64,000 bases of DNA, from assembly GCA_963706595.1 (NCBI GenBank), contig OY970166.1, positions 4,448,001 through 4,512,000 on the forward strand. The letters are read 5' to 3'. Made by a program: the position numbers and the translations under genes. Of this stretch, positions 1,665-62,581 are shown one piece after another. The notes under the pieces are model-generated. The model saw only the letters and a list, made by a program, of their open reading frames with translations. It made no database searches and had not been told where the DNA came from. Numbering within the stretch: position 1 is the first letter of the stretch; every line of letters begins with the position of its first letter. This stretch comes from an uncultured cyanobacterium (GTDB lineage: Bacteria; Cyanobacteriota; Cyanobacteriia; Cyanobacteriales; Nostocaceae).

Positions 1665-2042
1665 TTAGTCAATTTTGCCGTTAGTTTCTTGTAAATAACT
1701 TAATAACCAATTTGCGGCTGTGGCTCTACGAGTCTGTCGCGGTCCAAATTCACCAATTTTGTAACCTTTGAAACCCAACTTTTCTTTCGCTATTTGTTTA
1801 TTTTCTTGAGGAATAGAACGAGTTAATTTGACTGTAGCTGGGCGACTATCAATAAAGTCAGGTGGTTCTGGGTACTCATCTCGCCATGCTGATGCAACTT
1901 CGCTATTATCCCATTTGTCAGTTGAAGTGTTATGGCGATAGCCTAAGTAGTGCCAGACTAATTGATTGACTGTGGCATCATCAATTTGCTCATTAAAAAT
2001 TGCCCAGATTGTTTCTGTATTCAGTGGTGGTAAATTAGACAT
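1665..2042 (-). CDS. Conserved cyanobacterial protein (DUF1823-like)
   Basis: 125-aa ORF; the motifs WHYLGYR, RPATVKLTRSIP, KEKLGFKGYKIGE and TRRATAANWLL are recognisable. Confidence 0.75.
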   Translation of the reverse strand: MSNLPPLNTETIWAIFNEQIDDATVNQLVWHYLGYRHNTSTDKWDNSEVASAWRDEYPEPPDFIDSRPATVKLTRSIPQENKQIAKEKLGFKGYKIGEFGPRQTRRATAANWLLSYLQETNGKID

Positions 2043-2250
2043 AAGCGATGAAAATTTTACAATTCACGTGTGACTAAATTCGATTCTGTCCAGCAGTTAG
2101 GCTGACTTTGATCAACTCCTACAGATCAGGATGATTTTATCTCTTTCTACACCTACTGAAAAAGTTATCCGCAAAAACGACAAGTGTTTGAGTGAAAAAT
2201 TCGGTTGTGCGTCCACAAAACAGGTAAACTTGAAATCGTAAAGCATTGAC

Positions 2251-2559
2251 TTGTCTATGCAGAATCCTACATCACTGCCCAAGATAGTCCGCGCCCATGT
2301 ATTGATTTCCGGTCGAGTACAAGGGGTAGGCTATCGCTATGCGACTGTCGATACAGCTAGCCAGTTGGGTTTAACCGGTTGGGTGCGGAATCTCCCTGAT
2401 AACAGTGTGGAGGCAGTTTTTGAAGGGGCGCGGGTGGTTGTGGAAGAGATGGTTCGCTGGTGTCACACTGGCCCCCCGGCTGCGGTGGTGAAAGATGTTG
2501 TGCTTGAGTATCAAAAACCTGAAGGTTTGCGGGGGTTTGAAGTTAGGCGCTTTGAGTAG
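2251..2559 (+). CDS. acyP: Acylphosphatase
   Basis: Signatures GRVQGVGYR and GWVRNLPD..VEAVFEG; the start may be the ATG at 2257. Confidence 0.92.
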   Translation: MSMQNPTSLPKIVRAHVLISGRVQGVGYRYATVDTASQLGLTGWVRNLPDNSVEAVFEGARVVVEEMVRWCHTGPPAAVVKDVVLEYQKPEGLRGFEVRRFE

Positions 2560-2574
2560 CCCTTTTCTAAACAT

Positions 2575-2663
2575 TATGGTAGTTGAGGCTTTGCGAAACC
2601 CAACAAATGCTGTGGATGTTACTGGGAAAATGTTGGGTTTCACTGCGTTCTACCCAACCTACC
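2575..2663. repeat. REP-like inverted doublet
   Basis: GAAACCCAACA ... TGTTGGGTTTC inverted pair ending ACCCAACCTAC (GTAG motif on the minus strand). Confidence 0.55.
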
Positions 2664-2689
2664 ATAATTTTTCTACAACATTAAGTAGG

Positions 2690-3020
2690 TTGGTTGAGTC
2701 GGACAAGTCTTCGGTTTTGCAACCTACCAAGCTATTCGACTCAGTTTTATATTCGGAGGTCGTCGCCTTCCTCGCTGGTTCAGGTCTGGACTCCCGATTG
2801 TACGCCCGATAAATTCCCATTTATCAGCTCTGACCTTTGGGAGTACTCACGCCACAGCCACAGCCACCACGCGAAAACCAACATTGTTGTTACGATTCGC
2901 GCGCGCGTTATGATTGCGATTGGCAGAACGGCAATTCCTAGCGTTGTTGATCCAACTACCGCCACGCAGCAGCTAAAATCGACCTGCCCCATCCTCAAAT
3001 TTTCAACTGAATGAGAAATT
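2690..3020 (-). ncRNA. Predicted DGR RNA (5' leader, template repeat and structured spacer)
   Basis: Spans the TR. Hairpins at 2808-2825 (GATAAAT-TCCC-ATTTATC) and 2695-2743 (TGAGTCG/CGACTCA), with a predicted promoter at 3027-3055. Ends are estimated. Confidence 0.55.
2846..2973 (-). repeat. DGR template repeat (TR)
   Basis: 128-bp ungapped near-copy of 3163-3290, rich in AAC/AAT codons (TGG ATC AAC AAC GCT AGG AAT TGC ... AAT CAT AAC ... AAT CGT AAC AAC AAT GTT GGT TTT CGC). There are 14 mismatches to the VR, 13 of them at TR adenines. Confidence 0.93.
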
Positions 3021-3026
3021 TGATTA

Positions 3027-3055
3027 AATGTAGTGTATAATAGATTTGATATCAA
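3027..3055 (-). promoter_or_regulatory. Putative sigma70-type promoter for the TR RNA
   Basis: Minus strand TTGATA (3055-3050), 17-nt spacer, TACATT (3032-3027), about 55 nt upstream of the TR. Confidence 0.45.
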
Positions 3056-3081
3056 GACACCAGATTTGATAAAAAATTTTT

Positions 3082-3095
3082 CCGCCTGACGGCGG
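3082..3095 (-). other. GC-rich hairpin downstream of the VR (DGR target-recognition hairpin candidate)
   Basis: CCGCC-GTCA-GGCGG on the minus strand, about 70 nt after the target stop codon and following a pyrimidine-rich tract. Confidence 0.55.
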
Positions 3096-3162
3096 GGGAA
3101 AGAAGGGAAAAGAATAAGAAGTGCAGAGGGCAAAAGGGCAAGAGTGTAAAGGGCAAGGAATC

Positions 3163-3290
3163 CTCACGCCACAGCCACAGCCACCACGCGAAAACCAACA
3201 GTGTTGTCACGAGTCGCGCGCGCGAGAGGATCGCGATTGGCAGAACGGCAAGCACTAGCGAGGAGGATCCAACTACCGCCACGCAGCAGC
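3163..3290 (-). repeat. DGR variable repeat (VR1), at the 3' end of the FGE-domain gene
   Basis: Encodes LLRGGSWILLASACRSANRDPLARATRDNTVGFRVVAVAVA* and differs from the TR almost only at TR adenines. Confidence 0.93.
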
Positions 3291-6235
3291 CGATAATCAT
3301 TATCATTCCCATTTAGCCAAGCACTTCCGTCTGTGGGCGCTGCCTCGTAATTTTCGTTATATATATCTTGGCACCATTCCCATATATTACCATGCATATC
3401 GTACAAACCGAAAGAGTTTGGCAAAAAATTTCCGACATCTGTTGTTTGTCTACGACTTTCACCTTTTGGGGCTGAGGCGTAGGGAAAGTTACCGTCGTAG
3501 TTAACTAAATCTGTGGTTATGGTTTCACCAAAAGAGAAGGGTGTGGTTGTTCCCGCACGACAAGCATATTCCCATTCAGCCTCGCTGGGTAGCCTGTATT
3601 TGCGTCCTGTACTTTGACTCAATTTTTCACAAAATTCTACAGCATCATCCCAAGTCACTTGTTCTACAGGTCGTTTATCACCTTTGAAATTAGCAGGATT
3701 TGTCCCCATAATTGCTTGATACTGCGCCTGGGTAACTGGATATTTCCCCATGAAGAAGGCAGGAACATTAACCAGATGCTGGGGACTTTCACTATCGAAT
3801 CTTTCTGCTTCCTCTGGTGGTGAACCCATCAAAAAAGAACCGCCAGAAATCGCCACCATTTGCAGAGTTACGCCATTACCTACATTTTCTACAAACTGGT
3901 CTGCTGTGCGGTTGTCTCTGGCAACAATATTTCCCTGTGCATTGACTGCTACGATTTTAAATTCAAAAAAAGTCTGTAAAAAAAGAGAATCATAATTAGG
4001 TATATTATAATTCCGACTAGGATTTTGGGTAATTTGATGTGTTACCACTGATGTCAGTAAACCCACACCTCCCCAACTAAGCCAAGTTAAAAATTTCCTG
4101 CGGCTGATTATCGGGGAAATAGAATTATTCGATTTAACAAAACTCGGCTGGTGAATTGATGGCTGAGTCACTATTCCCAACTTTCGTAATTTTTTCTGTC
4201 TTTGGAGTGAGCGACTAAAATCATCTGATACTTTCATGGTAAGTACAGATTGTTTTGTCATAAAGCCGAGAAAAAGATAATCCCGTAATAGACTATCTTG
4301 AGAAGCTGGTTTAGATAATAAAGAACGGATGGAATTAGCTAATTTGGTTAAAAAACTAGGAGCTTGTGTTGCTATTTCTAACTGTAATTTGCTGAACGCG
4401 GAACCTAACCCCCTAGCCCCCTTCCCTACCAGGGAAGGGGGAACATTCAAAGCCTCTCCCCTTGTAGGGTAGAGTTTTGGAGAGGGGTTTTCCTGATCCT
4501 GTGGAAAGTCAGAACCTTGAACAGCCGTATTTAATAAATCTTCTAGCGCATTACGAATAATCTGCTGTTGTTCTGGGGTGAGTGTTGTCATCAGGTAAAC
4601 ACGCAACCAGTCTGGCATATAACCAGAACGCAGCCACGGTAAACGAGCCAAATCAGTCAAGGAACACACTTCTAATAGAGATTTTCCTGACTCTGTGGTG
4701 AGAACGTTACCCAGATAAATAGTAATATTCCAATGCAATTCCGGAAAAACCGCACAAGCACTCAACCAATAAAAACTATCCTGTCCAAGATATTTCTCCA
4801 GCGACTCCAGCATGAGATTAATCTGCTCAGATGGGGGAGGATTCCGTTCTATCCAGAGATAAGGTTGTGTCCGTAATGAATCTGGTAGAGGTATTGGCGT
4901 TTTTTCCGCCAGAAAATAAGTTGCTACACCCTGGCGTAGTCTTTGACTTAGCACCTGTAAGCCTTTAAGTGTTGCGGGTAAAATAATAAACTGTTGTGCA
5001 AGTTCTAATTCCTGATATCTCCAGTTTTCTACAGGAGTGGGTGTTAGAAATGCCCGGTTTTCCCAGTCTGTCAATTGATTTACCCAAGGTTCTAATTCAC
5101 CACTAATAGAGCTAAAAAAGTTATCTGTATCGGAGATAATAATTAGACAATGCTGACTGTATTTTGATGTAATTTCTCTGAGTCTAAGTGGGAAGCTTCC
5201 TGGCTGATGGGGAAAACACATTCTTGGGTCATCATCGAAGAAATAGATAGTAGTAAATACGCCTTCATCTTGTAAGCGCTCAATTATTTCTTCTACAAAT
5301 TTAGCTTGATGATCTCGATAGCTGGTGCGGTTAACCAGAAATAGATACTCAGGGAGAATTTGATAAGTACGATAAACTGGAGTTAGCCATCCGCCTCGGC
5401 TGAGAGTTGCATTAATAGTTTTATTGACATCAAGTTCATGAGATGGAATCTGAATTCTATATCTTAAACTCTGGGCAATTTGGCGCAAGACAATATGAGA
5501 AACTAATTTATCTTCACAGCCAGCAATAGAAATTTTGTTTAATTCGGGTTGTTTTGTTGTACTATAACGTTGCAAAAACAGATTAGCACGCCATTGCGAT
5601 CTCAAAATGAGAAATGCAACTGAGATAGTTAGATAAAGTAGTAAAATTTGCCAATTTAAAGGTAAAGTTTCCGGAGGATCTGTTTTTGTAATTTCTCCTC
5701 TGGGAGGCACTTGTGGAAGTGGTCCCGTTGCTGGTGGGGGTAATACTGGGGTTGTTGTTTCTCCTGTTGGTCGTGGTTGTCTGAAAGACCTCTTCTCTAT
5801 GGGGGATGGGAATAAGATAATATATACAAAACATAGAAGAAAAATAGTAATTAAAGTTAGCAGTCTGAGTTGCTGCATCCCATAGGAGACAGAGGGTATT
5901 TTTTCTGGTTCGACTGGATGTGGTAGAGTTTCTAGGGTTGCTTTTTCTGTTAAGAAATTAGTTCGGCTAGATAACTGAACCCATCTGTCAAAACGTTGTG
6001 GAAATTCTTCCTGCTCAATGGGTGAACTACACAAAATTGGCCCTAACAAATTTCTCAGATTCTCTGGACTATCCAATGTTGTACCCCGATCAATCAACAT
6101 CAAGATTAAATTTTGGGCTGCAATATACTGAGATATGCCAATTTTGTAACCTGCTGCTCTTAGTTCATCGATGAACTCGATCAAATCATCAGGATTTAGC
6201 CAGTTTAGATTGTTTTTGTCTGTTCCTGTATCCAC
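3164..6235 (-). CDS. DGR target protein: vWA-like region, transmembrane segments and C-terminal FGE-sulfatase (CLec-fold) domain
   Basis: FGE motifs FLMGS, YPVTQAQY, RLPSEAEWEYACRAG, PNSFGLYDMHGNIWEWC, RGGSW...GFRVV. The segment ELDVNKTINAT...PEYLFLVNR is typical of MoxR-partner vWA proteins. Three hydrophobic stretches. Confidence 0.85.
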   Translation of the reverse strand: MDTGTDKNNLNWLNPDDLIEFIDELRAAGYKIGISQYIAAQNLILMLIDRGTTLDSPENLRNLLGPILCSSPIEQEEFPQRFDRWVQLSSRTNFLTEKATLETLPHPVEPEKIPSVSYGMQQLRLLTLITIFLLCFVYIILFPSPIEKRSFRQPRPTGETTTPVLPPPATGPLPQVPPRGEITKTDPPETLPLNWQILLLYLTISVAFLILRSQWRANLFLQRYSTTKQPELNKISIAGCEDKLVSHIVLRQIAQSLRYRIQIPSHELDVNKTINATLSRGGWLTPVYRTYQILPEYLFLVNRTSYRDHQAKFVEEIIERLQDEGVFTTIYFFDDDPRMCFPHQPGSFPLRLREITSKYSQHCLIIISDTDNFFSSISGELEPWVNQLTDWENRAFLTPTPVENWRYQELELAQQFIILPATLKGLQVLSQRLRQGVATYFLAEKTPIPLPDSLRTQPYLWIERNPPPSEQINLMLESLEKYLGQDSFYWLSACAVFPELHWNITIYLGNVLTTESGKSLLEVCSLTDLARLPWLRSGYMPDWLRVYLMTTLTPEQQQIIRNALEDLLNTAVQGSDFPQDQENPSPKLYPTRGEALNVPPSLVGKGARGLGSAFSKLQLEIATQAPSFLTKLANSIRSLLSKPASQDSLLRDYLFLGFMTKQSVLTMKVSDDFSRSLQRQKKLRKLGIVTQPSIHQPSFVKSNNSISPIISRRKFLTWLSWGGVGLLTSVVTHQITQNPSRNYNIPNYDSLFLQTFFEFKIVAVNAQGNIVARDNRTADQFVENVGNGVTLQMVAISGGSFLMGSPPEEAERFDSESPQHLVNVPAFFMGKYPVTQAQYQAIMGTNPANFKGDKRPVEQVTWDDAVEFCEKLSQSTGRKYRLPSEAEWEYACRAGTTTPFSFGETITTDLVNYDGNFPYASAPKGESRRQTTDVGNFLPNSFGLYDMHGNIWEWCQDIYNENYEAAPTDGSAWLNGNDNDYRLLRGGSWILLASACRSANRDPLARATRDNTVGFRVVAVAVA
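4392..4512. repeat. GC-rich cyanobacterial palindromic repeat element inserted in frame in the CDS
   Basis: GAACCTAACCCCCTAGCCCCCTTCCCTACCAGGGAAGGGGG...CCTCTCCCC...GGAGAGGGG. The same start (GAACCTAACCCC..CCCCTTCCC) occurs intergenically at 63241. Boundaries are approximate. Confidence 0.65.
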
Positions 6236-7209
6236 TGTTCTACAATTTTTTTAGCTTTTTCTTGATCATCAGCAGTTTTAATTAAGCTACTCAAAGTACC
6301 AAAAACTACTTCGGGTTGCAGTAAAGGATTTTCTGATGGACTATGAAACTTTCGTAAAATTATTAGCCAACCCAATAATTCAGCCGTTGCGGGTTTTTTC
6401 CTCAAACCACTTTGGGGGGAACGTAACCTGTAAAATAAGTTAAGGGCTGCTTGCAAAAATGGACTACTACTACCAGCATTAATATTGAAACGATTAGCGA
6501 CAATCTCAGCCAGTCGCTCAATTTTGGGAAAAGGAACGTTGTAATAAATGCAACGCCTGAGAAAAGCATCAGGTAAATCTTTTTCAGAATTGCTGGTAAT
6601 AATTATAATTGGTTGTAATTCTGGTTCGGCGGCAATTTTTTCATTTCCTAACTCTGGAATCCGAAAATACATTAACTCCAATTCGTTGAGTAAATCATTG
6701 GCGAAATCACGAGGTGCTTTATCAATTTCATCAATTAAAACTACTGAACGTGTTTTTTGAGAATGTCGAGTTTCTAATGACAATAAATCTTTAACTTCAT
6801 CTGGATTTTTAGTGTGTAAAATTGCTGTTCCTAAAGCTTGAAAAGTGATGTAATCTAAAAATTTAGTTGAATCAACCCCACTTTGCACATCTTGGAATCG
6901 CTTTAAGGCATCATAAGTATAGAATAAGTCACGAGCAACGCTAGTGGACTTAGTTTCAAACTTTAACGGCTGTTCCAGTCCAAGTTCCCAAGCCAGACTG
7001 TAAGCTAGTTGAGTTTTACCGGTTCCTGGTTCGCCGGTCACAAGTAGGGGTTGTCCTAATAACAGGGCTACATTACACGCATCTTTCAAGCCTGAATCTG
7101 CAATATAATTCTTTGGCTGGAGTAATTGAGAACGGGGAGAAGTTGGCACTTTTACTGGTAAATCCAATTGTTTGCGAGTTCCATCACCTGAGTAAAAGGG
7201 GTAATTCAT
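6205..7209 (-). CDS. MoxR-family AAA+ ATPase
   Basis: Walker A GEPGTGKT, Walker B VVLIDEIDKA, TSNSEKDLPDAFLRRC, KKPATAELLGW; overlaps both neighbouring genes. Confidence 0.9.
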   Translation of the reverse strand: MNYPFYSGDGTRKQLDLPVKVPTSPRSQLLQPKNYIADSGLKDACNVALLLGQPLLVTGEPGTGKTQLAYSLAWELGLEQPLKFETKSTSVARDLFYTYDALKRFQDVQSGVDSTKFLDYITFQALGTAILHTKNPDEVKDLLSLETRHSQKTRSVVLIDEIDKAPRDFANDLLNELELMYFRIPELGNEKIAAEPELQPIIIITSNSEKDLPDAFLRRCIYYNVPFPKIERLAEIVANRFNINAGSSSPFLQAALNLFYRLRSPQSGLRKKPATAELLGWLIILRKFHSPSENPLLQPEVVFGTLSSLIKTADDQEKAKKIVEQWIQEQTKTI

Positions 7210-8319
7210 GCTGATTCATCCTGTAGGAGGGGTTTGACTAATTCAACTAATTTTTCAGCTAAATCATGCATGGGAATCGTATCAGAGTATGTTTGTTCTT
7301 CCCAAGATTCAAACATCTCTCCAACTCTTTGAATTAATGGTTCAATCATGGCTTCTCCCACTAGCTTTCTAGTATCTTCACTACGTACCCAATTTTCCAC
7401 TTCGCCCTGATTTATTCCTTCTAATTCTGGCAGAACGATTACAGAGAGAGGTTGAAAATGATTAAAATTTGAGTTAGCTAATTTTTCGAGATACTGGCGA
7501 ACTCTTTTATTTATCTGCTGACATCGATATTGTTTAGAAAAAACGCGTGAAAAACTGAATATCCACTTTATCCAGAGTTTTTTGGCAGATTTGTTGCGTT
7601 TGTTTTTATATTTAATCGATATGTAAATAATTAATTTTTGACTGATTACTGTTTCATGTAAATGATTACAAAATTCCAAGAGTTTATTCAAAATTTCAAA
7701 TTCTTGTTTTTGCAAATCTTCTGTAAGTAAAGTGGTATAAAGTATAATTGGTTCTGGATAATTGTTTAAATAATCGGTGATTTTTTCCAAAGAGTAGAAA
7801 CTATTTCCCAAAACACCCTTTGTTAGACTTTTATATAACTCATTTCGTAGTTGATGCAAATTTTTTAATTTTGAAGGACATTCCAGTTGATATGTTGTCT
7901 TACTAATTGATTGGTGTGAAAGTATCTCTAGCCATTTAGGGAGAGCAAAGGTTTGTATGCGTTCTAAAAAGTTGTGATGACATTGGGATTCATCTCCATG
8001 AACAATGCAAACTAAATGACCAGGAGAATCTTGCTTGAGAAATTTCAGAAATGTTTCACCTAGTTGTGATTCCTGTTCTTTCCGGTTGGTTAAATAGGGT
8101 AGGAGTGGTGGAAGTTCTTTTTTAAATGGAGTCGGGGGTTTTTGGAAACTGCTTGACCCACTTTGATGAAAGGTAACATTTTTGGACGTGTTGGAAATTT
8201 AGAGCCTGTCCATTATCCAATTGACCAATACTCTGCCCAAAATTTTGACCTACTTCCTGCTGAATTTCATTCTTTGACTGGGGTGGTTGAGGTTCTCCCT
8301 GGTTTGGTTCTTGAGTCAT
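7206..8319 (-). CDS. iSTAND-like protein with N-terminal Q/N/G-rich motif; one single-base frameshift at about 8180
   Basis: The frame of ORF 7206..7859 stays open up to 8198 (NVTFHQSGSS...LLPYLTNRKEQ...LVCIVHGDESQCHHNFLERI, a degenerate P-loop). Removing one A from the A5 run at 8179-8183 joins it to the ORF that starts at 8319, giving about 370 aa. Confidence 0.7.
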
Positions 8320-8362
8320 TTTTTCGCAAACTTATGGCATCACTTCGTATTAGACTAATTGA

Positions 8363-8809
8363 CTAAAGTGTGACATTTCCATCTACACTACCGATGCTAC
8401 CAATGTTTTTAGCTTGGCTATTCTGCATCTGTCCAATCATTTGTCCTTCAACTGTGCCGGCTGTTTGCTGAATTTGAACGCCACCTTTATCAACTCCATC
8501 GTTATCTTGAAGAATTTTGGCAATGATATCTGCAAGTCCTTGATCTTTTTTAAAGAGTGTTTCTAACTCTTCTTGAAGTGCGGCTTTCCAAACTTCACTA
8601 TCTGGTTTTTCTGCTAACTTTGTGGCGGCGATGTTGGCTGCTGCTTCTGCTTCGACTGGAGGATATAATTTTTTCCAAATTGCGGTGGCTTTATCCCAAG
8701 TGTCTTGACCAAGCTTGGTCGCTGCTGCACTTAATGCCGGCTCTCCAACTTTTTTTAACAGAAAGGGCAGACATGGAGCTAGAAAAGTTGTCAAAATTGC
8801 TACATCCAT
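8363..8809 (-). CDS. Small helical protein (Bell/HeLo-like) with C-terminal Q/N/G-rich motif
   Basis: N-terminal hydrophobic helix (ILTTFLAPCLPFLLKK), helical core (KLGQDTWDKATAIWKKL...LQEELETLF) and the tail IQQTAGTVEGQMIGQMQNSQAKNIGSIGSVDGNVTL. Confidence 0.7.
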   Translation of the reverse strand: MDVAILTTFLAPCLPFLLKKVGEPALSAAATKLGQDTWDKATAIWKKLYPPVEAEAAANIAATKLAEKPDSEVWKAALQEELETLFKKDQGLADIIAKILQDNDGVDKGGVQIQQTAGTVEGQMIGQMQNSQAKNIGSIGSVDGNVTL

Positions 8810-8966
8810 TTATTTAAATTCTGATATTTTGCAAGTAACTTGATGTAACTCATAAATACCACAGCTTCTTATGGGAAAACAAGCCCAAATCCTGCATTTT
8901 AGGGATTGACGACTTGATGGGGATATTTAGCCTCTGGTAGAGTTTATAACTTTTTTGTAAATTATC

Positions 8967-8995
8967 TTGACATTTTGTAACAAAGTTGTTAAGAT
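8967..8995 (+). promoter_or_regulatory. Near-consensus promoter overlapped by HLR1-like (RpaB) half-sites
   Basis: TTGACA (8967-8972), 17 nt, TAAGAT (8990-8995) with an extended TG. GTTACAAA and TTTACAAA on the minus strand lie 20 bp apart. Confidence 0.6.
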
Positions 8996-9000
8996 TGTTT

Positions 9001-9157
9001 ACATAAGTTAGCAAATACCTCAAGCACCTACGTAAATTACTATTAAAAAAGTTGCCTTGGAATTGAGTTAGAAATTCGCTTATTTGTATTGTTGTATCTA
9101 AATCGTCATTCTTACTTCTCCTAATCAGAGACCTCAGTTGCCAAGCTGAGGTTTTTT
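9001..9157 (+). ncRNA. Putative small RNA, PsrR1 (SyR1)-like
   Basis: Strong promoter upstream, no ORF-track ORF, and an intrinsic terminator ACCTCAG...CTGAGGT-TTTTT (9131-9157). Identity is inferred from context and recalled motif resemblance only. Confidence 0.45.
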
Positions 9158-9169
9158 GTTGGGGATAAA

Positions 9170-9964
9170 TTAGCTTTTTGGTTTTTGAAATATTTCGGCG
9201 AAAAACTGCTTGAGGGCTTGCCAGGAGCGTTTTTCTACTACTGGATTATATAGCGATCGCGGCGCACTATTAGCTTCTGGATTTGTAAAGCTATGCACTG
9301 CACCACCATAAGATATTAATTGCCAATCAACATTGGCTTCTCGCATTTCGGTAGCAAATGCTTGTACTTGTTCGTCTGGCACAATGGGGTCATCAGCACC
9401 ATGTAACACTAATACTTTGGCTTGGATGTTTTTGGCATCATTGGGGTTAGGGGTGTCAAGGTTGCCGTGAAAACTTGCTACTCCGGCAATATTTGCCCCA
9501 CTCCGGGCTAGTTCTAAGACTGTTCCACCGCCGAAGCAGTAACCAATGGCGGCTATGCGTTGAATATCGGTGAGTGGGTTTTGTCGTAAAACTTTTAAGC
9601 CGGCAAGAGTGCGATCGCGCAATAATTGTCTATCCTGACGATAAATTGAGGCTTGTTTTCCTGACTCTTCGGGGTTGTTTGGTCTAATGCCTTTACCGTA
9701 AATATCAGCAGCAAATGCTACATAACCAAGTTTAGCTAATTCCTCAGTGCGTTCTTTCACAAAGGACTGTAAACCGTTCCACTCATGCACGACTAAAACG
9801 CCAGGACGCTTACCTGGGATAGAATCGTCGAAAGCAAGATAACCTTCCAAAACGGTATCGCCGTGTTTATACTCAATAGTTCGCGTTTGAATTGCTGCAA
9901 GCACTGGTGTAGAAGATAACGACATCAGCACAGGGGCAACTAAAACCGGAATCAGTAATTTCAT
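9170..9964 (-). CDS. Dienelactone hydrolase family protein with signal peptide
   Basis: VVHEWNG, GYCFGG nucleophile motif, HGADDP, AVHSFTNP. Confidence 0.9.
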   Translation of the reverse strand: MKLLIPVLVAPVLMSLSSTPVLAAIQTRTIEYKHGDTVLEGYLAFDDSIPGKRPGVLVVHEWNGLQSFVKERTEELAKLGYVAFAADIYGKGIRPNNPEESGKQASIYRQDRQLLRDRTLAGLKVLRQNPLTDIQRIAAIGYCFGGGTVLELARSGANIAGVASFHGNLDTPNPNDAKNIQAKVLVLHGADDPIVPDEQVQAFATEMREANVDWQLISYGGAVHSFTNPEANSAPRSLYNPVVEKRSWQALKQFFAEIFQKPKS

Positions 9965-18183: not shown

Positions 18184-18900
18184 TTATCGGTTAATTATCG
18201 GTTTGTCAGCTGTAACTTGCTGAGAAACTTTTAAGGAAGTAGTCACAGCTACTAAACCTAAGACGGTAATACCATGCTGATTCAGAATTTTTACAGCAGA
18301 CCTAGTTGTAGCACCCGTAGTATAAATATCGTCAACTAATAACACTGGGACTTTGAGACGGCGACGGCGTAATTCTTCTCCAACAGCAAAAGCTTCAGCT
18401 AAGTTATTTTCTCGTTCAGATACTGATAAACCAAATTGTGCTTTCGTTTCTTGGACTCTTTTTAAACCATTTATCTGCAATTTTAAGCCCGTGGTTTGAC
18501 AAAAACTTTGAGCTATTAATGCAGCTTGGTTATAACCGCGAGTTTTTTGCTTCTGGGGATGGAGTGGTATGGGGACTACCAAAGGTTGTGGTTGGCATTT
18601 GGACACATTTGATAACAACCATGTTTCTCCTAGCCATTGACCCAAAGGGCGGGCAATTTGGGGTTGATTGTCATATTTCATCACAGCGATCGCGCGTTTG
18701 ACAATTCCCCCATATATTCCCCAGCCAAATACAGGTATTGGTTGTTGCCACAAAGCCGCAGGGTCTTTGTGCTGACAGCTTTGGAGTTGCTTAGTACAGT
18801 AAGGACAAAATTCACCCGATGTCGGTCTTTGACATAAAGGACAATGGGATTGCAAAAACAGGTTGAGAAAGTTGTGAAAACTGTGCTTCCAGGTTGGCAT
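18184..18900 (-). CDS. comF: ComF-family phosphoribosyltransferase-like protein
   Basis: CPLC..CPYC zinc ribbon, RGYNQA, LLVDDIYTTGAT. Confidence 0.88.
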   Translation of the reverse strand: MPTWKHSFHNFLNLFLQSHCPLCQRPTSGEFCPYCTKQLQSCQHKDPAALWQQPIPVFGWGIYGGIVKRAIAVMKYDNQPQIARPLGQWLGETWLLSNVSKCQPQPLVVPIPLHPQKQKTRGYNQAALIAQSFCQTTGLKLQINGLKRVQETKAQFGLSVSERENNLAEAFAVGEELRRRRLKVPVLLVDDIYTTGATTRSAVKILNQHGITVLGLVAVTTSLKVSQQVTADKPIINR

Positions 18901-18905
18901 TTATA

Positions 18906-18975
18906 GGGGAGTGGGGAGTGGGGAGTGGGGAGTGGGGAGAAGAGGAACGGGTGCAGGGGGCAGGGGGCAGGGGAG
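18906..18975. repeat. Heptamer tandem repeats (GGGGAGT)n and (GGGGGCA)n
   Basis: Directly visible. The same family occurs at 36666-36723 and, inverted, at about 22690-22715. Confidence 0.8.
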
Positions 18976-36547: not shown

Positions 36548-36665
36548 TTTAAATAAAGTTGTTAGTAGTTTCGGTTATTCAACGCCAACAACTAAAAAAT
36601 TAACAGTTAATTTGATCAATATGTTAATTGAAAGATGAGGGTAGGTGGGAAATGCCAATTTTTCG

Positions 36666-36697
<32 letters not shown>

Positions 36698-36999
36698 GTG
36701 GGGAGTGGGGAGTGGGGAGTGGGTTAAAACCCGAAATGGTGTCTAAGTTTGATTATTCCTTTATGTCTTAACCTCCTTGGCGGTTGCTATACCTCAATCA
36801 TACTGTGGTATTTGTGGTCTTCGCTGTCTTCTTGATTTTGGATGCGGTCTGCAAAGTAGACGGACAGATATACTGCATATTTCATCTGAGTAGGTACTAG
36901 GCGGGCAAGACTTGTACTGAGCTTGTCGAAGTATGCCCACCCCACAAGAGTTATAAAATGAAGATGTGTATTTGATTTACTGCGAAAGTGCTGTAATTT

Positions 37000-47391: not shown

Positions 47392-47643
47392 TTCTGCGTC
47401 AACCTGTAGGTGTTTTTTTCGGGATACCATTTTTTTCGGCTGAACCTCTTACCCTGACTAGGTTTCAGGCTCTGAATCGAGGAAGGAGGTTGACGCAAAT
47501 CCTCAAACCTTTACCAGTCAGGCTTTTTCGGTGTTTTTTAATTTCACCATCTTGACAACTTGGTTCTGAAACGGTACTTTTAGATCAGGTTGACGGAACT
47601 GAACCTTGAAAACCAAATATATCAATGCTTCCAGCACCGAGCT
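47392..47643 (+). promoter_or_regulatory. CRISPR leader with promoter
   Basis: TTGACA (47552-47557), 17 nt, TACTTT (47575-47580), plus the inverted repeat TGCGTCAACCT/AGGTTGACGCA. Confidence 0.75.
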
Positions 47644-48988
47644 ATTGCAATTAAAACTAATCCCTATCAGGGATTGAAACAAGGACAACACTACTAAATA
47701 AAATTTGCAACATTGATTGCAATTAAAACTAATCCCTATCAGGGATTGAAACATCGATATTGAATTTAAGCGACTATTCCCAGAAGATTGCAATTAAAAC
47801 TAATCCCTATCAGGGATTGAAACCTTACACAACAATGGGCATCACAATTGATGCCCATAATTGCAATTAAAACTAATCCCTATCAGGGATTGAAACAGAG
47901 CATGAAGATGATGAAAATTGCTTTGGTGAAGATTGCAATTAAAACTAATCCCTATCAGGGATTGAAACTTATTTTTGCTCAACCAGTGACTGAGCAAACC
48001 TGAGATTGCAATTAAAACTAATCCCTATCAGGGATTGAAACATGGCATCCTAATTTTAAAGTGACTTTAATAATGAAATTGCAATTAAAACTAATCCCTA
48101 TCAGGGATTGAAACACAAACCTAAAGGCGCTGGAATTAAAGATTAACGATTGCAATTAAAACTAATCCCTATCAGGGATTGAAACAGCCTCTACCTTTAA
48201 AATGTAACTGTGATCATTCGCCTGAAGCTGTCCCAGATTGCAATTAAAACTAATCCCTATCAGGGATTGAAACTATCTGTGCAAGCGATCGCGCTTTGTC
48301 TCTACGCATTGCAATTAAAACTAATCCCTATCAGGGATTGAAACTTTTATTGCTTGGGCTGCTGGATTCCAATGTATTGCAATTAAAACTAATCCCTATC
48401 AGGGATTGAAACGCTGTTTTCCTTGCTACTAAGCTCAGTAGAAATATATTGCAATTAAAACTAATCCCTATCAGGGATTGAAACAGGGGAGAAATAACTT
48501 TCCACATAATGAATAAGAATTGCAATTAAAACTAATCCCTATCAGGGATTGAAACCGGGGAATACTTCCTTGACGACCTCAATAACCCCAATTGCAATTA
48601 AAACTAATCCCTATCAGGGATTGAAACAGCCGGGATGGCTTGCTCATCTGCTTGAAGTAAATGATTGCAATTAAAACTAATCCCTATCAGGGATTGAAAC
48701 GGCAGACAAAAATTTAATTCCTTATTTAAAGCTCTATTGCAATTAAAACTAATCCCTATCAGGGATTGAAACTCTTGTGGTTTGAATTTAGCTATCGGGG
48801 ATTCCTTATTGCAATTAAAACTAATCCCTATCAGGGATTGAAACTCCAGAAATACCAGTGATAGTTAGTGTGTATGTATATTGCAATTAAAACTAATCCC
48901 TATCAGGGATTGAAACATCTTAATGAAAACACTAATTTTGTCATAAGAAAAATTGCAATTAAAACTAATCCCTATCAGGGATTGAAAC
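47644..48988 (+). CRISPR. CRISPR array, 19 identical 37-nt repeats and 18 spacers, no cas genes in the window
   Basis: Repeat ATTGCAATTAAAACTAATCCCTATCAGGGATTGAAAC, with an AATCCC/GGGATT stem and the 3' ATTGAAAC handle typical of class 1 cyanobacterial arrays. Confidence 0.97.
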
Positions 48989-58176: not shown

Positions 58177-61100
58177 ATGAGTGAGAAATTTGACCAGTTA
58201 ATTAGAGTATTACAAAAAGAATTAAAGCTAACTGGTACAGAAATCGCTGAAATTCTCTGGTTAGCACAACAAACCTCGTCTAATTTTTCTGGTCAAAAAA
58301 TACAAGATTCATCTAATGAACCAAAAACAATAATTAAAGATGTACCAGAAGATATACCAGCAGATATACCAAAAGACAGACCATTTGATATACTAAGTGA
58401 CCCACCCCCACCAACAAATGTTATTCAGCCAGAACCATCAACTGCTGTAGTTACTCCTCAAACCTCAAAGACATCTTCTGGTAGCGGTTTATCGATAAAG
58501 CTTCCTGACCGTTCATCTCTTCCTTATCCCTTAAAAATTGCTAAAGCATTACGTCCTTTAATTCAATATATTGCCTTTGGTAAAGCAGTTTTGTTAGATG
58601 AAAATGCCACAGTTGAACTGACTGCTGAATTAAATGGAGTCTGTATTCCTGTTCTGAAACCGCAACTAGAATTAAGATTTGATTTAACAGTAGTAATCGA
58701 TAAAAGTGATTCTATGATTTTTTGGCAAGGCATAACCAAAGAATTAGAACAAATTTTAAAACATTATGGTATTTTTCGCAATATTCAAACTTTTGGTATG
58801 GTGGAAAATGAGCAAGGAGATATTTGTTTAAGACAAGAAATAAGTAAAAAAAAATATTCAACTCAGAAATTAATTGATCCTAGTGGTCGTCGTTTAATCT
58901 TAGTAGTGAGTGATTGTGTTAGTGAAATTTGGCGCAATGGCAAAGCTTTTGATTTATTAAAAATTTGGGGTAAACATAATGTTGTAGCTATTGTGCAAAT
59001 GTTACCGGAAAAAATGTGGTTAAGAACTGGCTTGAGTTTAGGCACAATGGTACAGTTAGATAGTTTAATTCCCGCAGTATCCAATCGTAATTTATTCATT
59101 AAAGAAATTTTAATTTGGGATTATATTGATCAAAATTCTATCAAAGTTCCTGTTTTTAGCCTAACACAAAATTCTATAGAAACTTGGAGTCAAATGGTAA
59201 CAGGAAAAGGAAATATAGGTGCAGGTGGCTTTGCATTTTCTTCTCTTCAAGAGCAAGAGAAAGAAAGTGATGAGCAATCACAATTAACTATTGAAGAAAG
59301 AATACACAATTTTCGTGTGAGTTCCTCCCCCGTAGCCAGAAAATTAGCCAGTTTATTAGCGTCTGCACCTGTAATTAATTTGCCTGTAGTGCGTTTAATT
59401 CAAAATTTAATTAATAAAAATAATAATTTAGAACTTCCTCAAATTCATGTCATAGCTGAAGTATTTTTAGGTGGTATTTTAAAACCTACCAAAGAAATTA
59501 CACCAGATACTGACCCAGATTATGTTCAATATCATTTTATTGATGAAAAAATTAGAGATAGCTTACTTTCAGACAGTTCCAGAGTCAAGTCACGGGAAAT
59601 AATTGAAATTATTTCTGAATATTTTGCTAAACAACTGGGAAAAAATCTTAAAGAATTTTATGCGTTGTTAAAAAAGCCAGATGAGTTAGAAAAATTAAAA
59701 ACCGAGAAGAATGTTACAGATTTTGATGTCAAACATTTTGCCACTATCACTACCAAAGTTTTAAAACGTTTAGGAGGAGATTATGCTCGATTTGCTGAAG
59801 AAATTGAACAGTCTCAAAATCCACAACGAAAAGATACCGAACCTAGCATTTTTCAAGTATTTGCTGGAGAATACACTTGTTCAGTTAAATGGGGTGGAGA
59901 AACAGGTATTTGGCGTAAAGAATCACAACCAGAACATTTATGGATTTCTCCACAAGGTGAAGTGCAGTTTCGTTCTCGTTTTGGGTTGGCGGTAATTCAA
60001 AATTTAACTATAAATGAGCAAAGGTTATCTTGGAATTTTGGTGATAATCAAACTGCTGCTAGTATCACTTTTAAGGTAAATAGCGAAGATAGCTACTTTT
60101 GGGGAGATAATCAAACAGGAAAGTTATTTCAAGGATGGTTGAATTATCCCAAGGAAGGCAAAATAGATTTTCGAGGTAGGTTGGTAATTAGTGACCCATT
60201 ACAAGGTTTCCCTCCAATTCAAGATTTAACCTTTGAAGCCGTAAATATTTCTGTTGAGGATGATGATGTAAATTACAACCTGCAATCTTTTGAGTTTGAA
60301 GTTGCGCTCATCACAGGAATTAAAGAAGCTAATACAACTAATCCTATAGAAGTTGCTAATAATTTAGTATTTTCCCAGACAGAAAAACATTTGACTGAAG
60401 TTGAACAGCTAATTATACAAGAAACAATATCAGATAAAACTTATGAGCAAATCGCAGCATCATCAAATTGCTCTACAGAATACCTAAAAGAATTAGCATA
60501 TCGATTATGGGAAATTTTTTCAACAGCTTTGGGTGAAAAAGTTAATAAAAGAAATTTCAAGAATGTTATTCAACTGCAAGTAAATAATTCTCTAATAAAT
60601 ATTCGTCGTAGTCGTCAAACAGCCAATTATTTTATTGAAGAATTGAATGGTGTTCAACTAGAAATGGTGTCTATTCCTGAAGGCAATTTTACGATGGGGT
60701 CGCCAAAAGAGGAACCAGCGCGTTTTAGTGATGAAAGTCCTCAACACGAAGTAACTGTTCCAGCTTTCTTCATGGGCAAATACACAGTAACACAAGCACA
60801 GTGGCAAGCAGTGGCATATCTGCCGCAAGTTAACCGAGAACTAAAGCCTGACCCTTCTAAATTTAAGGGTGCAAATAAACCTGTAGAGCAAGTTTCTTGG
60901 TACGATGCAGTTGAATTTTGTCAGCGTCTTACTGCCCATACAAAAAGACAGTATCGCCTACCCAGCGAAGCAGAATGGGAATATGCCTGTCGTGCTGGAA
61001 CTACTAGCCCATTTCACTTTGGTGAGACAATCACATCAGAATTGGCTAACTATGATGCTACCTCCATTTATGGCAGGGGTGTAAAAGGAAGCTACAGAGA

Positions 61101-61422
61101 GGAGACTACACCTGTGGGCAGTTTTAAAGCAGCTAACAACTTTGGACTATACGATATGCACGGAAATGTATGGGAATTGTGTCTTGATGATTGGCATAGT
61201 AATTATGAAGGAGCGCCAGGAAATGGTAGTGCGTGGTTTGATGATAATAATAACCTTTCTCAAAAGCAAGGAAAAGCCTTACTGCGGGGCGGTTCCTGGG
61301 TCTACTCTCCTAAGTACTGCCGTTCTGCGTCTCGCAGCAACGATCTTAGGGCGGAGCGCGTCGATGTCAAATACAGTATCGGTTTTCGTGTTGTCTGTGC
61401 TGTTGGCAGGATTCTTCAGTAG
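58177..61422 (+). CDS. vWA-like (SAV_2336-type) protein with HTH and C-terminal FGE-sulfatase domain; probable DGR target
   Basis: EIAEILWLA, IAKALRPL, LDENATV, VVIDKSDSM, LILVVSDCVS..W, QMLPEKMW; HTH-like LTEVEQL...TYEQIA...LGEKVNKRNFK; full FGE motif set. Confidence 0.85.
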   Translation: MSEKFDQLIRVLQKELKLTGTEIAEILWLAQQTSSNFSGQKIQDSSNEPKTIIKDVPEDIPADIPKDRPFDILSDPPPPTNVIQPEPSTAVVTPQTSKTSSGSGLSIKLPDRSSLPYPLKIAKALRPLIQYIAFGKAVLLDENATVELTAELNGVCIPVLKPQLELRFDLTVVIDKSDSMIFWQGITKELEQILKHYGIFRNIQTFGMVENEQGDICLRQEISKKKYSTQKLIDPSGRRLILVVSDCVSEIWRNGKAFDLLKIWGKHNVVAIVQMLPEKMWLRTGLSLGTMVQLDSLIPAVSNRNLFIKEILIWDYIDQNSIKVPVFSLTQNSIETWSQMVTGKGNIGAGGFAFSSLQEQEKESDEQSQLTIEERIHNFRVSSSPVARKLASLLASAPVINLPVVRLIQNLINKNNNLELPQIHVIAEVFLGGILKPTKEITPDTDPDYVQYHFIDEKIRDSLLSDSSRVKSREIIEIISEYFAKQLGKNLKEFYALLKKPDELEKLKTEKNVTDFDVKHFATITTKVLKRLGGDYARFAEEIEQSQNPQRKDTEPSIFQVFAGEYTCSVKWGGETGIWRKESQPEHLWISPQGEVQFRSRFGLAVIQNLTINEQRLSWNFGDNQTAASITFKVNSEDSYFWGDNQTGKLFQGWLNYPKEGKIDFRGRLVISDPLQGFPPIQDLTFEAVNISVEDDDVNYNLQSFEFEVALITGIKEANTTNPIEVANNLVFSQTEKHLTEVEQLIIQETISDKTYEQIAASSNCSTEYLKELAYRLWEIFSTALGEKVNKRNFKNVIQLQVNNSLINIRRSRQTANYFIEELNGVQLEMVSIPEGNFTMGSPKEEPARFSDESPQHEVTVPAFFMGKYTVTQAQWQAVAYLPQVNRELKPDPSKFKGANKPVEQVSWYDAVEFCQRLTAHTKRQYRLPSEAEWEYACRAGTTSPFHFGETITSELANYDATSIYGRGVKGSYREETTPVGSFKAANNFGLYDMHGNVWELCLDDWHSNYEGAPGNGSAWFDDNNNLSQKQGKALLRGGSWVYSPKYCRSASRSNDLRAERVDVKYSIGFRVVCAVGRILQ
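61282..61422 (+). repeat. VR-like region 2
   Basis: 141 nt, collinear with 62423-62563; nonsynonymous differences cluster in NNY codons. Confidence 0.65.
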
Positions 61423-61501
61423 CCCTTTATACTTTTTCTCTTTTGTCCTTTACCCTTCTTTTTTTCCTTTTTTAGCGGAGCGATCTTTTTTTAAAAAATA
61501 C

Positions 61502-61629
61502 AGTAAGTCGGCACAAATAAACTTAACTATGTAACAGAATGTAAAAACCCCAAAACTCTTGCGATTGCTTCATTCCACTTCGTTCCATTCGCAATGACAT
61601 ACATTGAAATTTTTACGCCGACCTACTTA
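61502..61629. mobile_element. MITE-like element, same TIR family as 49189-49330
   Basis: AGTAAGTCGGCACAAATAA ... TTTTACGCCGACCTACTTA. Confidence 0.6.
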
Positions 61630-61717
61630 TTACACTTGATAATTATTAAAAAATCGTATTTTGGGATATAACCCGAATTAGACGCAAACTTAATTAAAAA
61701 TTTATTAAATATAGTCA

Positions 61718-62563
61718 ATGTCCAAAATAGTTATAAACAGAACGCAAAAGACAGCCCAATACTATGTAGAAGATTTGGGCGATGGAATTGGGTTAGATAT
61801 ACTGCTGATTCCTGGGGGTAGTTTTATGATGGGTTCACCAGAGAATGAACTGGAACGCAGGGAATCAGAAAGCCCCCAGCATTTAGTAAATATTCAACAA
61901 TGTTGCATGGGTAAATATCCAATCACTCAACCACAGTGGAAAGCTGTTGCAGCGTTAGCAAAGGTGAATAAAGACCTAGACGCTGACCCCTCTAAATTTA
62001 AGGGTGTAAATAGACCTGTAGATCGAGTCTCTTGGTACGATGCAGTTGAATTTTGTCAGCGTCTTACTGCCTACACAAAAAGGGAGTACCGTCTACCTAG
62101 TGAAGCAGAATGGGAATATGCCTGTCGTGCTGGAACTACTAGCCCATTTCACTTTGGTGAGACAATCACATCAGAATTGGCTAACTATAGAGCTACTGAA
62201 ACTTATGGCAGGGGTGTAAAAGGAATTTATAGAAAGGAGACTACACCTGTGGGCAGTTTTAACGCAGCTAACAACTTTGGACTATACGATATGCACGGAA
62301 ATGTATGGGAATGGTGTCTTGATGATAGGCACGAAAACTATGAAGGAGCGCCAACAGATGGCAGAGCTTGGTTTAATGATAATAATAATGATAATATTTA
62401 CCAAAAAAAAGGAAGATCCTTACTGCGGGGCGGGTCCTGGTACGACAATCCTAGAGGCTGCCGTTCCGCGTCTCGCGGCAGTCTCACTAGGGCGGAGCGC
62501 GACAACCGCAACCACAGTTTTGGTTTTCGTGTTGTTTGCGCTGTTGGGAGGACTTTTAAGTAG
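61718..62563 (+). CDS. Stand-alone FGE-sulfatase (CLec-fold) domain protein; probable DGR target
   Basis: Close paralogue of the C-terminal domain of 58177..61422, sharing RLPSEAEWEYACRAGTTSPFHFGETITSELANY. Confidence 0.85.
   Translation: MSKIVINRTQKTAQYYVEDLGDGIGLDILLIPGGSFMMGSPENELERRESESPQHLVNIQQCCMGKYPITQPQWKAVAALAKVNKDLDADPSKFKGVNRPVDRVSWYDAVEFCQRLTAYTKREYRLPSEAEWEYACRAGTTSPFHFGETITSELANYRATETYGRGVKGIYRKETTPVGSFNAANNFGLYDMHGNVWEWCLDDRHENYEGAPTDGRAWFNDNNNDNIYQKKGRSLLRGGSWYDNPRGCRSASRGSLTRAERDNRNHSFGFRVVCAVGRTFK
62423..62563 (+). repeat. VR-like region 3
   Basis: Encodes LRGGSWYDNPRGCRSASRGSLTRAERDNRNHSFGFRVVCAVGRTFK*; retains AAT/AAC codons. Confidence 0.65.
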
Positions 62564-62581
62564 CCCTTTACACTTCTCCGG

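Follow-up and report, generated by a model that had tools for sequence, protein, structure and literature searches.

In the fungal HET-S/NWD2 and HELLP/PNT1 systems, a motif at the N-terminus of a receptor serves as the template for one at the C-terminus of a helical protein that attacks membranes. This work concerns a four-gene locus with a pair of matching motifs in an uncultured cyanobacterium of the Nostocaceae (GenBank assembly GCA_963706595.1, contig OY970166.1). The window, i.e. the whole stretch of DNA that was analysed, comprises 64,000 nucleotides (positions 4,448,001 to 4,512,000 of the contig), and coordinates given below refer to it unless stated otherwise. On its minus strand, four genes placed head to tail code for a small protein assigned to the Bell family, an inactive-STAND (iSTAND) protein, a MoxR-like AAA+ ATPase and a large membrane protein. 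We propose that they probably represent a Bell/BASS-type signalling pair in which the iSTAND subunit of a ternary conflict system of MoxR type stands where a NOD-like receptor (NLR) would otherwise be found. The fungal systems differ from this locus in being eukaryotic, in using another motif family and in having an active NACHT NLR as the receptor.

Bell/BASS/NLR pairs were described in filamentous bacteria by Dyrka et al. (2020; bioRxiv 10.1101/2020.01.06.895854). According to that report, Bell domain proteins have ~120–140 residues and form a ~100-residue helical bundle; the helix at their N-terminus is hydrophobic, and residue 2 or 3 is acidic. Their homologues adjoin NLR genes, and the domain is also found at the N-terminus of all-in-one NLRs. 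The BASS motifs have an excess of Q, N, G, V and I and a deficit of K, P and L, and fibrils were demonstrated for BASS1 and BASS3. The window locus resembles these pairs in its small helical protein with a hydrophobic N-terminal helix and a C-terminal Q/N/G-rich motif of ~25–40 residues, in the recurrence of that motif at the start of the product of the collinear gene that follows, and in its multicellular cyanobacterial host. As in those pairs, close homologues of its Bell domain are associated with NB-ARC/TPR and nSTAND1/WD40 proteins. In contrast, the partner in the window is an ATPase-dead STAND protein without repeats, encoded inside a MoxR-type cassette. The text states that only Bell neighbours matching Pfam NACHT or NB-ARC were retained, so that iSTAND and nSTAND1 partners were beyond the net of that study.

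A non-NLR trigger has been experimentally proven for Bab/Agp, an antiphage system of E. coli that acts by abortive infection (Ibarlosa et al. 2024; bioRxiv 10.1101/2024.11.07.622273). As the accessible text has it, Bab is a proven killer related to Bell, with a 'Babybell' domain of ~80 residues, and Bell-type folds differ widely in topology. The window locus has in common with Bab/Agp a motif of amyloid-signalling type shared by a small Bell-related protein and a non-NLR protein encoded next door, whereas MoxR, iSTAND and diversity-generating retroelement (DGR) components do not form part of Bab/Agp as described there.

The other line of work, by Kaur et al. (2020, eLife; PMC7159879), deals with MoxR-vWA ternary conflict systems that have an iSTAND component. 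In the portions of that article available to us, these systems have paired EAD adaptors: one EAD copy is found on a core component, iSTAND included, and a second one on an adjacent effector, adjacent copies being the most alike. The window cassette similarly combines an iSTAND protein, a MoxR-like AAA+ protein and a large variable protein with transmembrane segments and a C-terminal FGS/FGE domain, the commonest C-terminal domain in those systems, and the N-terminal adaptor of its iSTAND protein is duplicated on the neighbouring effector gene. Unlike in the systems described, its adaptor is a short motif of amyloid-signalling type rather than a globular EAD or Death-like domain, and its effector is a Bell protein. 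The word 'amyloid' does not occur in that paper, and 'prion' occurs only with reference to ASC/MAVS and in the bibliography.

Doré et al. (2024, PNAS; PMC10907252) proposed a vWA-type protein with a DGR-diversified C-type-lectin-fold domain as a sensor acting upstream of MoxR, among others in multicellular cyanobacteria, and documented continued diversification at DGR loci that are incomplete or act in trans. The systems set out there are of the VMAP type and have peptidase or TIR effectors; neither an amyloid motif nor a Bell effector is described for them, and 'amyloid' appears only in the title of a reference. The original prediction for this locus, made from the DNA sequence, held that the combination is not known to have been characterised. 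In agreement with this, our literature search, which did not extend to subscription-only papers and closed supplements, found no paper describing a Bell/BASS protein paired with an iSTAND protein.

A Q/N/G-rich motif shared by two adjacent genes

The first gene of the cassette (8363..8809, minus strand, stop codon counted in) codes for a 148-residue protein whose C-terminus is VQIQQTAGTVEGQMIGQMQNSQAKNIGSIGSVDGNVTL. The adjoining open reading frame (ORF; 8319..8122), which starts 43 nt beyond the end of the first gene, begins with MTQEPNQGEPQPPQSKNEIQQEVGQNFGQSIGQLDNGQALNFQHVQ. The original prediction reported 13 identities over 23 ungapped positions between the two termini, and this was reproduced exactly with the last 38 residues of the small protein. 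None of 5,000 composition-preserving shuffles of both termini attained such a match. At the DNA level, 41/69 nucleotides of the matching segment are identical, and different codons are used at 8 of the 13 identical residues, which indicates that the likeness is kept at the peptide level and does not stem from a recent DNA copy.

The effector-side motif, delimited by alignment, AlphaFold2 (AF2) modelling and composition, spans residues 111–148 (8366..8479, minus strand). It is kept in the 30 homologues aligned and is disordered in the AF2 model, with a predicted local distance difference test score (pLDDT) of 35–48. The partner-side motif, defined by the ungapped match and by alignment of the pairs, covers 8169..8271 (minus strand) at the N-terminus of the iSTAND gene, where NEIQQEVGQNFGQSIGQLDNGQALNFQHVQ is followed by a change of frame and NVTF. 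Once the frameshift is read through, the GNVTL end of the effector and the (Q)NVTF end of its partner correspond, as had been predicted.

The pair is exclusive in this genome. From the 30-sequence alignment we derived a profile of the effector-side motif and searched with it, unfiltered, the 15,857 ORFs of at least 50 residues in the 5.57-Mb genome. It matched only the effector (E 3e-20) and the adjacent 65-residue ORF (E 4.5e-5), the next E-value being 1.8.

The composition of the motif pair is of the amyloid-signalling type. Q, N and G together account for 42% of the residues in one motif and 50% in the other. The corresponding share in randomly drawn proteome windows is 16.6%, so that the motifs rank within the top 0.1% and top 0.02% of such windows, respectively. 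Over 18 pairs from this and related loci, Q, N, G, V and I are over-represented in both motifs and K, P and L under-represented; proline accounts for 0.3–0.5% of residues, against 4.7%. The Q/N/G-rich, proline-poor character noted in the original prediction is thus borne out.

Pairing and co-variation of the motifs in related loci

We analysed 109 related loci, 29 from species genomes and 80 from metagenomes, of which 101 were testable. In 69 of the latter, the N-terminus of a neighbouring ORF matches the Bell tail with a Smith-Waterman score of at least 45, second-best scores being mostly ~15–35, and the matching ORF is nearly always the next collinear gene. Among the 61 partners of at least 150 residues, Pfam identified 19 iSTAND, 13 NB-ARC, 12 nSTAND1 and 5 CHAT proteins; the remaining 12 have other domains or none. 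As the species and metagenome collections overlap, they were deduplicated, leaving 17 distinct iSTAND pairs, or 18 with that of the window. The Bell-iSTAND-MoxR cassette therefore occurs at 17 further distinct loci, from several cyanobacterial families, and intact copies with all four genes exist in cultured Nostocaceae.

The motifs of the 18 pairs co-vary. Over a 30-column core, cognate motifs are 48.8% identical and non-cognate ones 39.3%, and none of 20,000 permutations of the partner labels attained the cognate value, with or without locus L101, at which both sides have switched wholly to a BASS6-like motif while the partner is still an iSTAND protein. For the 17 pairs other than L101, cognate identity is higher than that of swapped partners in 117 of 136 locus pairs, equal to it in 15 and lower in four. 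Common ancestry by itself does not yield such an excess, because the divergence expected across the divide between the two genes is equal for cognate and non-cognate motifs. These counts are not independent, since close relatives share change events. Paired changes can be seen at individual positions: GQM is replaced by GNM on both sides in L006 (Q to N), QNS/DNG in some pairs corresponds to YGG/YGG or SGG/SGG in others, and L008 has N on both sides. In the 17 pairs whose motif is of the window type, the G and Q residues of a G-Q-x-I-G-Q core do not vary on either side; L101, with its other motif class, differs at two of them. Both the pairing at homologous loci and its co-variation, which the original prediction had put forward as a test, were thus found.

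All 10 iSTAND loci inspected have the gene order Bell, iSTAND, AAA+, large protein, and the flanking genes vary. So does the C-terminal module of the large protein: it is an FGE-sulfatase domain in the window and in L009, an intact locus of Anabaena subtropica, a CHASE2 domain in L003 and WD40 repeats in L005, L006 and L008, and no C-terminal module was recognised in the large protein of L002. The link between Bell and iSTAND is therefore the constant part of the cassette, and the DGR/FGE sensor is one option of several.

Phylogenetic analysis of 56 Bell domains placed 15 of the 18 iSTAND-paired sequences in one clade (support 100/98), which also contains two NB-ARC-paired ones. Two further iSTAND-paired sequences are found at the base of the other side of the tree, and that of L101 lies amid NLR-paired sequences. 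The iSTAND label requires three changes on this tree, at least two of which are forced by well-supported branches, indicating that partners were swapped between iSTANDs and true NLRs. Such an exchange is as expected if the iSTAND protein holds the place of the NLR.

A survey from the iSTAND side found this domain in 43 of 401 sampled cyanobacterial genomes. Of 29 other loci in that survey, most have N-termini that resemble coiled-coil, caspase-like, trypsin-like or other domains, as judged by eye, and three have Q/N/G-rich motif N-termini. Two more iSTAND genes start with a different Q/N/G-rich repeat, made of VQGN.N units (L136:747-1223 and 1228-2334; L137:605-1141 and 1303-2376). This repeat matches the N-terminus, and not the C-terminus, of an upstream protein of 158 or 178 residues (Smith-Waterman scores 74 and 82) that ends with a hydrophobic helix and does not match the Bell profile. 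These proteins may represent a second type of motif-coupled small effector for iSTAND cassettes.

In a Microcoleus locus, the Bell and iSTAND genes are separated by an inserted DDE transposase gene (L005:7594-8490), and the same insertion is present in L120. The Bell tail of L005 is altered at its extreme end.

Assignment of the small protein to the Bell family

Pfam and NCBIfam contain no family that matches the 148-residue protein, nor a Bell model. Its assignment to the Bell family is indirect, but has several supports: its sequence features, the neighbours of its homologues and their tails. The helical Bell-like domain, as defined by the AF2 model and conserved residues, comprises residues 1–104 (8498..8809, minus strand) and starts with the hydrophobic segment MDVAILTTFLAPCLPFLL, position 2 of which is Asp in most of the 30 aligned homologues and Asn or Glu in the others. 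Residues L10, P15, L17, W38 and W45 are invariant in this alignment. The AF2 model, computed with the same 30 homologues, has helices over residues 3–101 (pLDDT ~73–93 per 10-residue block) and a disordered segment from 104 to 148. A length of 148 residues with a helical bundle of ~100 residues agrees with the published size and architecture of Bell proteins.

We found 34 close homologues of the protein, and a phmmer search of 1.84 billion representative sequences yielded 587 clusters at E<=1e-3. Most relatives have 130–160 residues and start with M-D/E followed by a hydrophobic segment marked by proline, and their tails are diverse, with Q/N/G-rich or G/S/V-rich ends. Family members with phmmer E-values of 1e-10 to 1e-16 have tails of the published BASS6 type (SGERSVA.GG...TGD) or BASS9 type, and the tail of homologue P0155 (E 2e-10) is of the type of entry C01_s033 in the published BASS data set. 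The Bell-like domain also occurs in fusions with a NACHT-type NTPase followed by TPR or FGE-sulfatase domains, as well as with TIR. NACHT was found above the Pfam cut-off in P0076 and P0180, and P0150 has matches to AAA_16/NPHP3_N-type NTPases, with NACHT slightly below the cut-off. A profile made from 136 relatives detected a single member of the family in the window genome.

The original prediction was of a 'Bell/HeLo-like' effector. Its Bell part is in line with the features just described, the NLR-paired homologues and the BASS tails, but fold searches with the Bell model returned only weak, unspecific helical matches, with no link to HeLo or MLKL. One family member has a sub-threshold HeLo match (E 0.0094). 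The families DUF6340, Miga and HetE-N were considered for the protein and rejected, all matches being under the cut-offs; the HetE-N lead, which came from the Atlas, is borne by 26% of one cluster only.

Several relatives have additional features. P0180 (1032 residues) is a single chain that ends in an FGE-sulfatase domain and also has a Bell-like domain and a NACHT module, and so unites the effector and sensor types that the window cassette distributes over four genes. The Bell-like domain is also fused to caspase-like CHAT proteases, in the order Bell-motif-CHAT or CHAT-Bell-motif (L018:6947-8125, L020:2321-3445, L047:3368-4429, L061:3404-4435 and L070:3392-4408). In these fusions, too, the motif has a counterpart at the N-terminus of a gene next to them, which is a STAND gene except at L018, where it is unclassified. 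The Pfam model EAD10 matches the tail of P0120, a member of the Bell family (residues 88–134, E 6.8e-6), and also the N-terminus of an NB-ARC partner (L105:4230-5633, residues 11–70). Judging from these matches, EAD10 and BASS-type motifs may be one thing with two names.

The iSTAND partner and the other genes of the cassette

The four co-directional genes form one cassette, and Pfam assigns families to three of them: iSTAND, AAA/AAA_5 and FGE-sulfatase. The iSTAND gene (7206..8319, minus strand) is in two frames, 8319..8182 and then 8180..7206. The residues encoded by 8099..7650 match PF19995 (E 9.4e-18, 65.6 bits for a cut-off of 24), and this is the only iSTAND domain in the genome. At the Walker A position the protein reads HGDESQCHH; it is thus an iSTAND protein without a P-loop. 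It also lacks repeats, and so is not a NACHT or NB-ARC protein with TPR or WD repeats. Beta-APP matches to three of 16 iSTAND N-termini, all sub-threshold (best E 0.037), were taken as noise.

The AAA+ gene (6205..7209, minus strand; 334 residues) overlaps the iSTAND stop codon by 4 nt at its start, and its position in the cassette is conserved. Its product matches Pfam AAA (E 3.4e-10) and AAA_5 (E 2.2e-9), both above the cut-offs, and the MoxR-specific model bpMoxR weakly (E 0.071). Its sole sequence matches in the PDB are Midasin AAA modules (E 4.5e-5).

The last gene (3164..6235, minus strand) overlaps the AAA+ gene by 31 nt and codes for a 1023-residue membrane protein. It has an N-terminal helical part, hydrophobic segments, an alpha/beta domain and a C-terminal FGE-sulfatase domain of C-type-lectin fold (PF03781, residues 792–1018, E 2.6e-56). 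The central part was modelled with a mean pLDDT of 50.7, and only the alpha/beta domain is usable (pLDDT ~60–84, most blocks 76–84). Compared with vWA domains, those of NorD and BchD included, this model gave Z-scores of 8.6–10, and TIR and CheY folds tie with them.

A variable repeat (VR; 3157..3290, minus strand) at the 3' end of the FGE-domain gene and a template repeat (TR; 2840..2973, minus strand), 317 nt downstream, are 88% identical over 134 nt. Of the 16 differences between them, 13 are at TR adenines on the coding strand. Such adenine-specific differences at the end of an FGE domain are, by sequence, the signature of a DGR. Thus, the DGR-diversified sensor of the original prediction is backed by the repeats; the reverse transcriptase (RT) is missing from their surroundings, and as seen above this type of sensor is one of several C-terminal modules. 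No RVT_1 match was found in the 64-kb window or beside the TR. The genome has five such matches, all outside the window, the nearest at genome positions 4,623,989–4,624,630, ~173 kb from the TR.

Another VR/TR pair devoid of an RT is found at ~3,654 kb in the genome (G000:C1:3654045-3654465), at the end of a 692-residue ORF. It is 86% identical over 126 nt, and its TR region is 84% identical to that of the window over 201 nt. Between the VR and the TR of the window, the coding strand has a GC-rich hairpin (3082–3095, CCGCC-GTCA-GGCGG) with an A/T run after it; this may represent a terminator or serve as the hairpin for target recognition by a DGR. Ahead of the FGE domain, the large protein has an internal SRRKFL twin-arginine-like motif and a hydrophobic segment (~4140–4180, residues ~686–698), and residues 685–704 of its counterpart L002:9687-12899 match the TAT_signal model weakly (E 0.0016). 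The twin-arginine-like motif and its hydrophobic segment suggest that the diversified domain is exposed to the periplasm.

Other elements of the window

A consensus scan for promoters and terminators over 2000–9300 gave no more sites than shuffled sequences. At 60733–62575, in reverse orientation, two tandem paralogous stretches, 78–82% identical and 1135–1141 nt apart, resemble the FGE-domain gene at 3365–3693 and are probably further FGE-domain genes. A CRISPR-like array at 47622–48988 has 19 copies of a 37-nt repeat, ATTGCAATTAAAACTAATCCCTATCAGGGATTGAAAC, with a spacing of ~72 nt. Runs of the heptamer GGGGAGT are present at 18885–18953 and 36658–36726, 17.7 kb apart.

Weighing of the proposed signalling pair

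The analysis shows the gene order, the identities of the domains, the exclusive, co-varying motif pair and its composition of amyloid-signalling type. By analogy with NWD2/HET-S, BASS and Bab/Agp, the motifs would act through amyloid templating, the Bell protein would attack the membrane, and the signal would run in the direction proposed below. On this basis, we consider a Bell/BASS-type pair with an iSTAND subunit in the NLR position to be the probable reading, held with some reserve.

A number of points weigh against it. With an iSTAND protein devoid of a P-loop, NLR-like oligomerisation driven by its own nucleotide cycle cannot apply. No Pfam vWA match was obtained for the large protein, so that the vWA assignment is unconfirmed; of the MoxR-vWA system that the original prediction invoked, the iSTAND domain followed by a MoxR-like AAA+ protein and an FGE-ended protein is in place, with the alpha/beta domain as a candidate for the vWA part. 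Fold searches of the Bell-like domain against the PDB gave no significant match (none at Foldseek E<=0.001; best Foldseek E 2.6, best VIA Z 5.1). The window motif appears to be outside the published BASS1–10 classes, as far as the published data set shows (PMC8086366): among its listed entries, three core strings of the motif have no occurrence, and only one entry, filed under BASS1, resembles the motif type. Fibril formation by the motifs is something that we infer by analogy. Finally, with a frameshifted iSTAND gene and no RT near the TR, the window copy may be inactive.

This last point leads to the alternative that survives best, namely that the window locus is a decaying remnant, with a truly frameshifted iSTAND gene and a lost DGR RT, in which no signalling takes place whatever the ancestral role. 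Beyond a run of five adenines (A5; 8179..8183, minus strand), the iSTAND gene proceeds in the other frame, NVTFHQSG..., down to 7206. In two related contigs that span this site (runs X1 and X4, ~94–95% identical), the run is one base shorter (A4) and the frame is restored, and all 17 other distinct iSTAND partners are intact and in a single frame. One-base errors in homopolymers are a common assembly artefact. Sequencing reads of the window genome itself were not found, the best run containing 0.29 of the sampled words, and the comparison is one with contigs of relatives only. The closed genome is 94.05% complete and the listed sampled relatives 98–100%, which is a hint, but no more, of indel errors in the assembly. 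We regard a real frameshift in the window gene as a serious possibility, if not quite the one on which we would settle. Programmed frameshifting at A5 was set aside on sequence grounds, the run being short and without a standard slippery heptamer, and the 17 other copies being in one frame.

The missing RT, together with the second RT-less VR/TR pair elsewhere in the genome, would also fit a remnant, but the incomplete and trans-acting DGR loci documented by Doré et al. are still diversified according to the accessible text, and the Bell gene and the downstream genes of the cassette are intact. Altogether, a decayed locus strikes us as plausible, though we lean somewhat away from it.

Next, the shared motif might be a one-to-one homotypic adaptor comparable to EADs, acting e.g. 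by pairing of beta-strands, with neither prion-like templating nor fibrils. Kaur et al. describe for EADs, iSTAND included, a layout like that of the window, and the EAD10 matches to both a Bell-family tail and a partner N-terminus mean that the two descriptions already overlap. However, no EAD or Death-like Pfam family was detected at the N-terminus of the window iSTAND ORF (E<=0.1) or at 16 iSTAND N-termini (E<=1), and the motif is short, Q/N/G-rich and predicted to be disordered, with the composition bias of BASS motifs. Moreover, the same Bell family bears BASS6- and BASS9-type tails, and BASS motifs of two classes form fibrils in the data that Dyrka et al. present. A plain adaptor is therefore unlikely in our view.

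Still less probable is a role of the small protein as a regulator that caps the N-terminal motif of the iSTAND protein and keeps it inactive, or as a decoy, instead of an executioner. Bell toxicity is assumed by analogy, fold searches yield no link to pore-formers, and the CHAT proteases fused to the same domain in some relatives could be the true effectors there. Nevertheless, the family shares with Bell, HeLo and Bab proteins their hallmark of a hydrophobic helix at the N-terminus that bears an acidic residue, and a Pfam scan identified no other effector-type domain among the four genes of the cassette. Bab, whose genes have the same layout, is a proven killer in the account of Ibarlosa et al.

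As for the possibilities that two segments of low complexity are alike by chance or that a recent duplication at the locus left the likeness behind, the compositional bias of both segments does inflate naive identity counts, but the composition-preserving shuffles, the conserved and co-varying pairing in 18 distinct loci of several cyanobacterial families and the codon differences refute both.

Proposed mechanism and implications

If the Bell/BASS-type reading holds, signalling might proceed as follows. The large membrane protein would sense a ligand via its variable C-terminal module, here the DGR-diversified FGE domain of C-type-lectin fold. The AAA+ chaperone would then remodel or assemble the ATPase-dead iSTAND scaffold, and the clustered N-terminal motifs of the latter would nucleate a cross-beta fold that templates the matching C-terminal motif of the Bell protein. 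The hydrophobic N-terminal helix of the Bell protein, released in this way, would attack the membrane and kill the cell, the outcome being a response akin to abortive infection in a filamentous cyanobacterium.

Joining all these elements gives a broader picture that we put forward tentatively and regard as rather doubtful as a whole. In it, a hypermutable, DGR-diversified and probably outward-facing receptor would act through a MoxR chaperone and an ATPase-dead STAND scaffold on a prion-like switch, which in turn would arm a pore-forming Bell protein. A separate AAA+ protein would take over the oligomerisation that in NLRs is driven by nucleotides, the amyloid-motif socket would be a portable connector swapped between NLRs and iSTAND cassettes, and some EADs, EAD10 at least, would be amyloid signalling motifs.

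The cassette joins two lines of research into the immunity of multicellular bacteria that have been separate, NLR-Bell amyloid signalling on the one hand and MoxR-vWA ternary systems with homotypic adaptors, some with DGR sensors, on the other. One suggestion arising from it is that prion-like relay serves generally as an output connector, with no need for an active STAND ATPase, and that the enigmatic iSTAND subunit has a concrete role, as the nucleator of the amyloid fold of the effector. Being compact, with four genes only, it offers a way to ask how an AAA+ chaperone could trigger a templated fold, and it bears on whether a hypervariable receptor can drive cell suicide.

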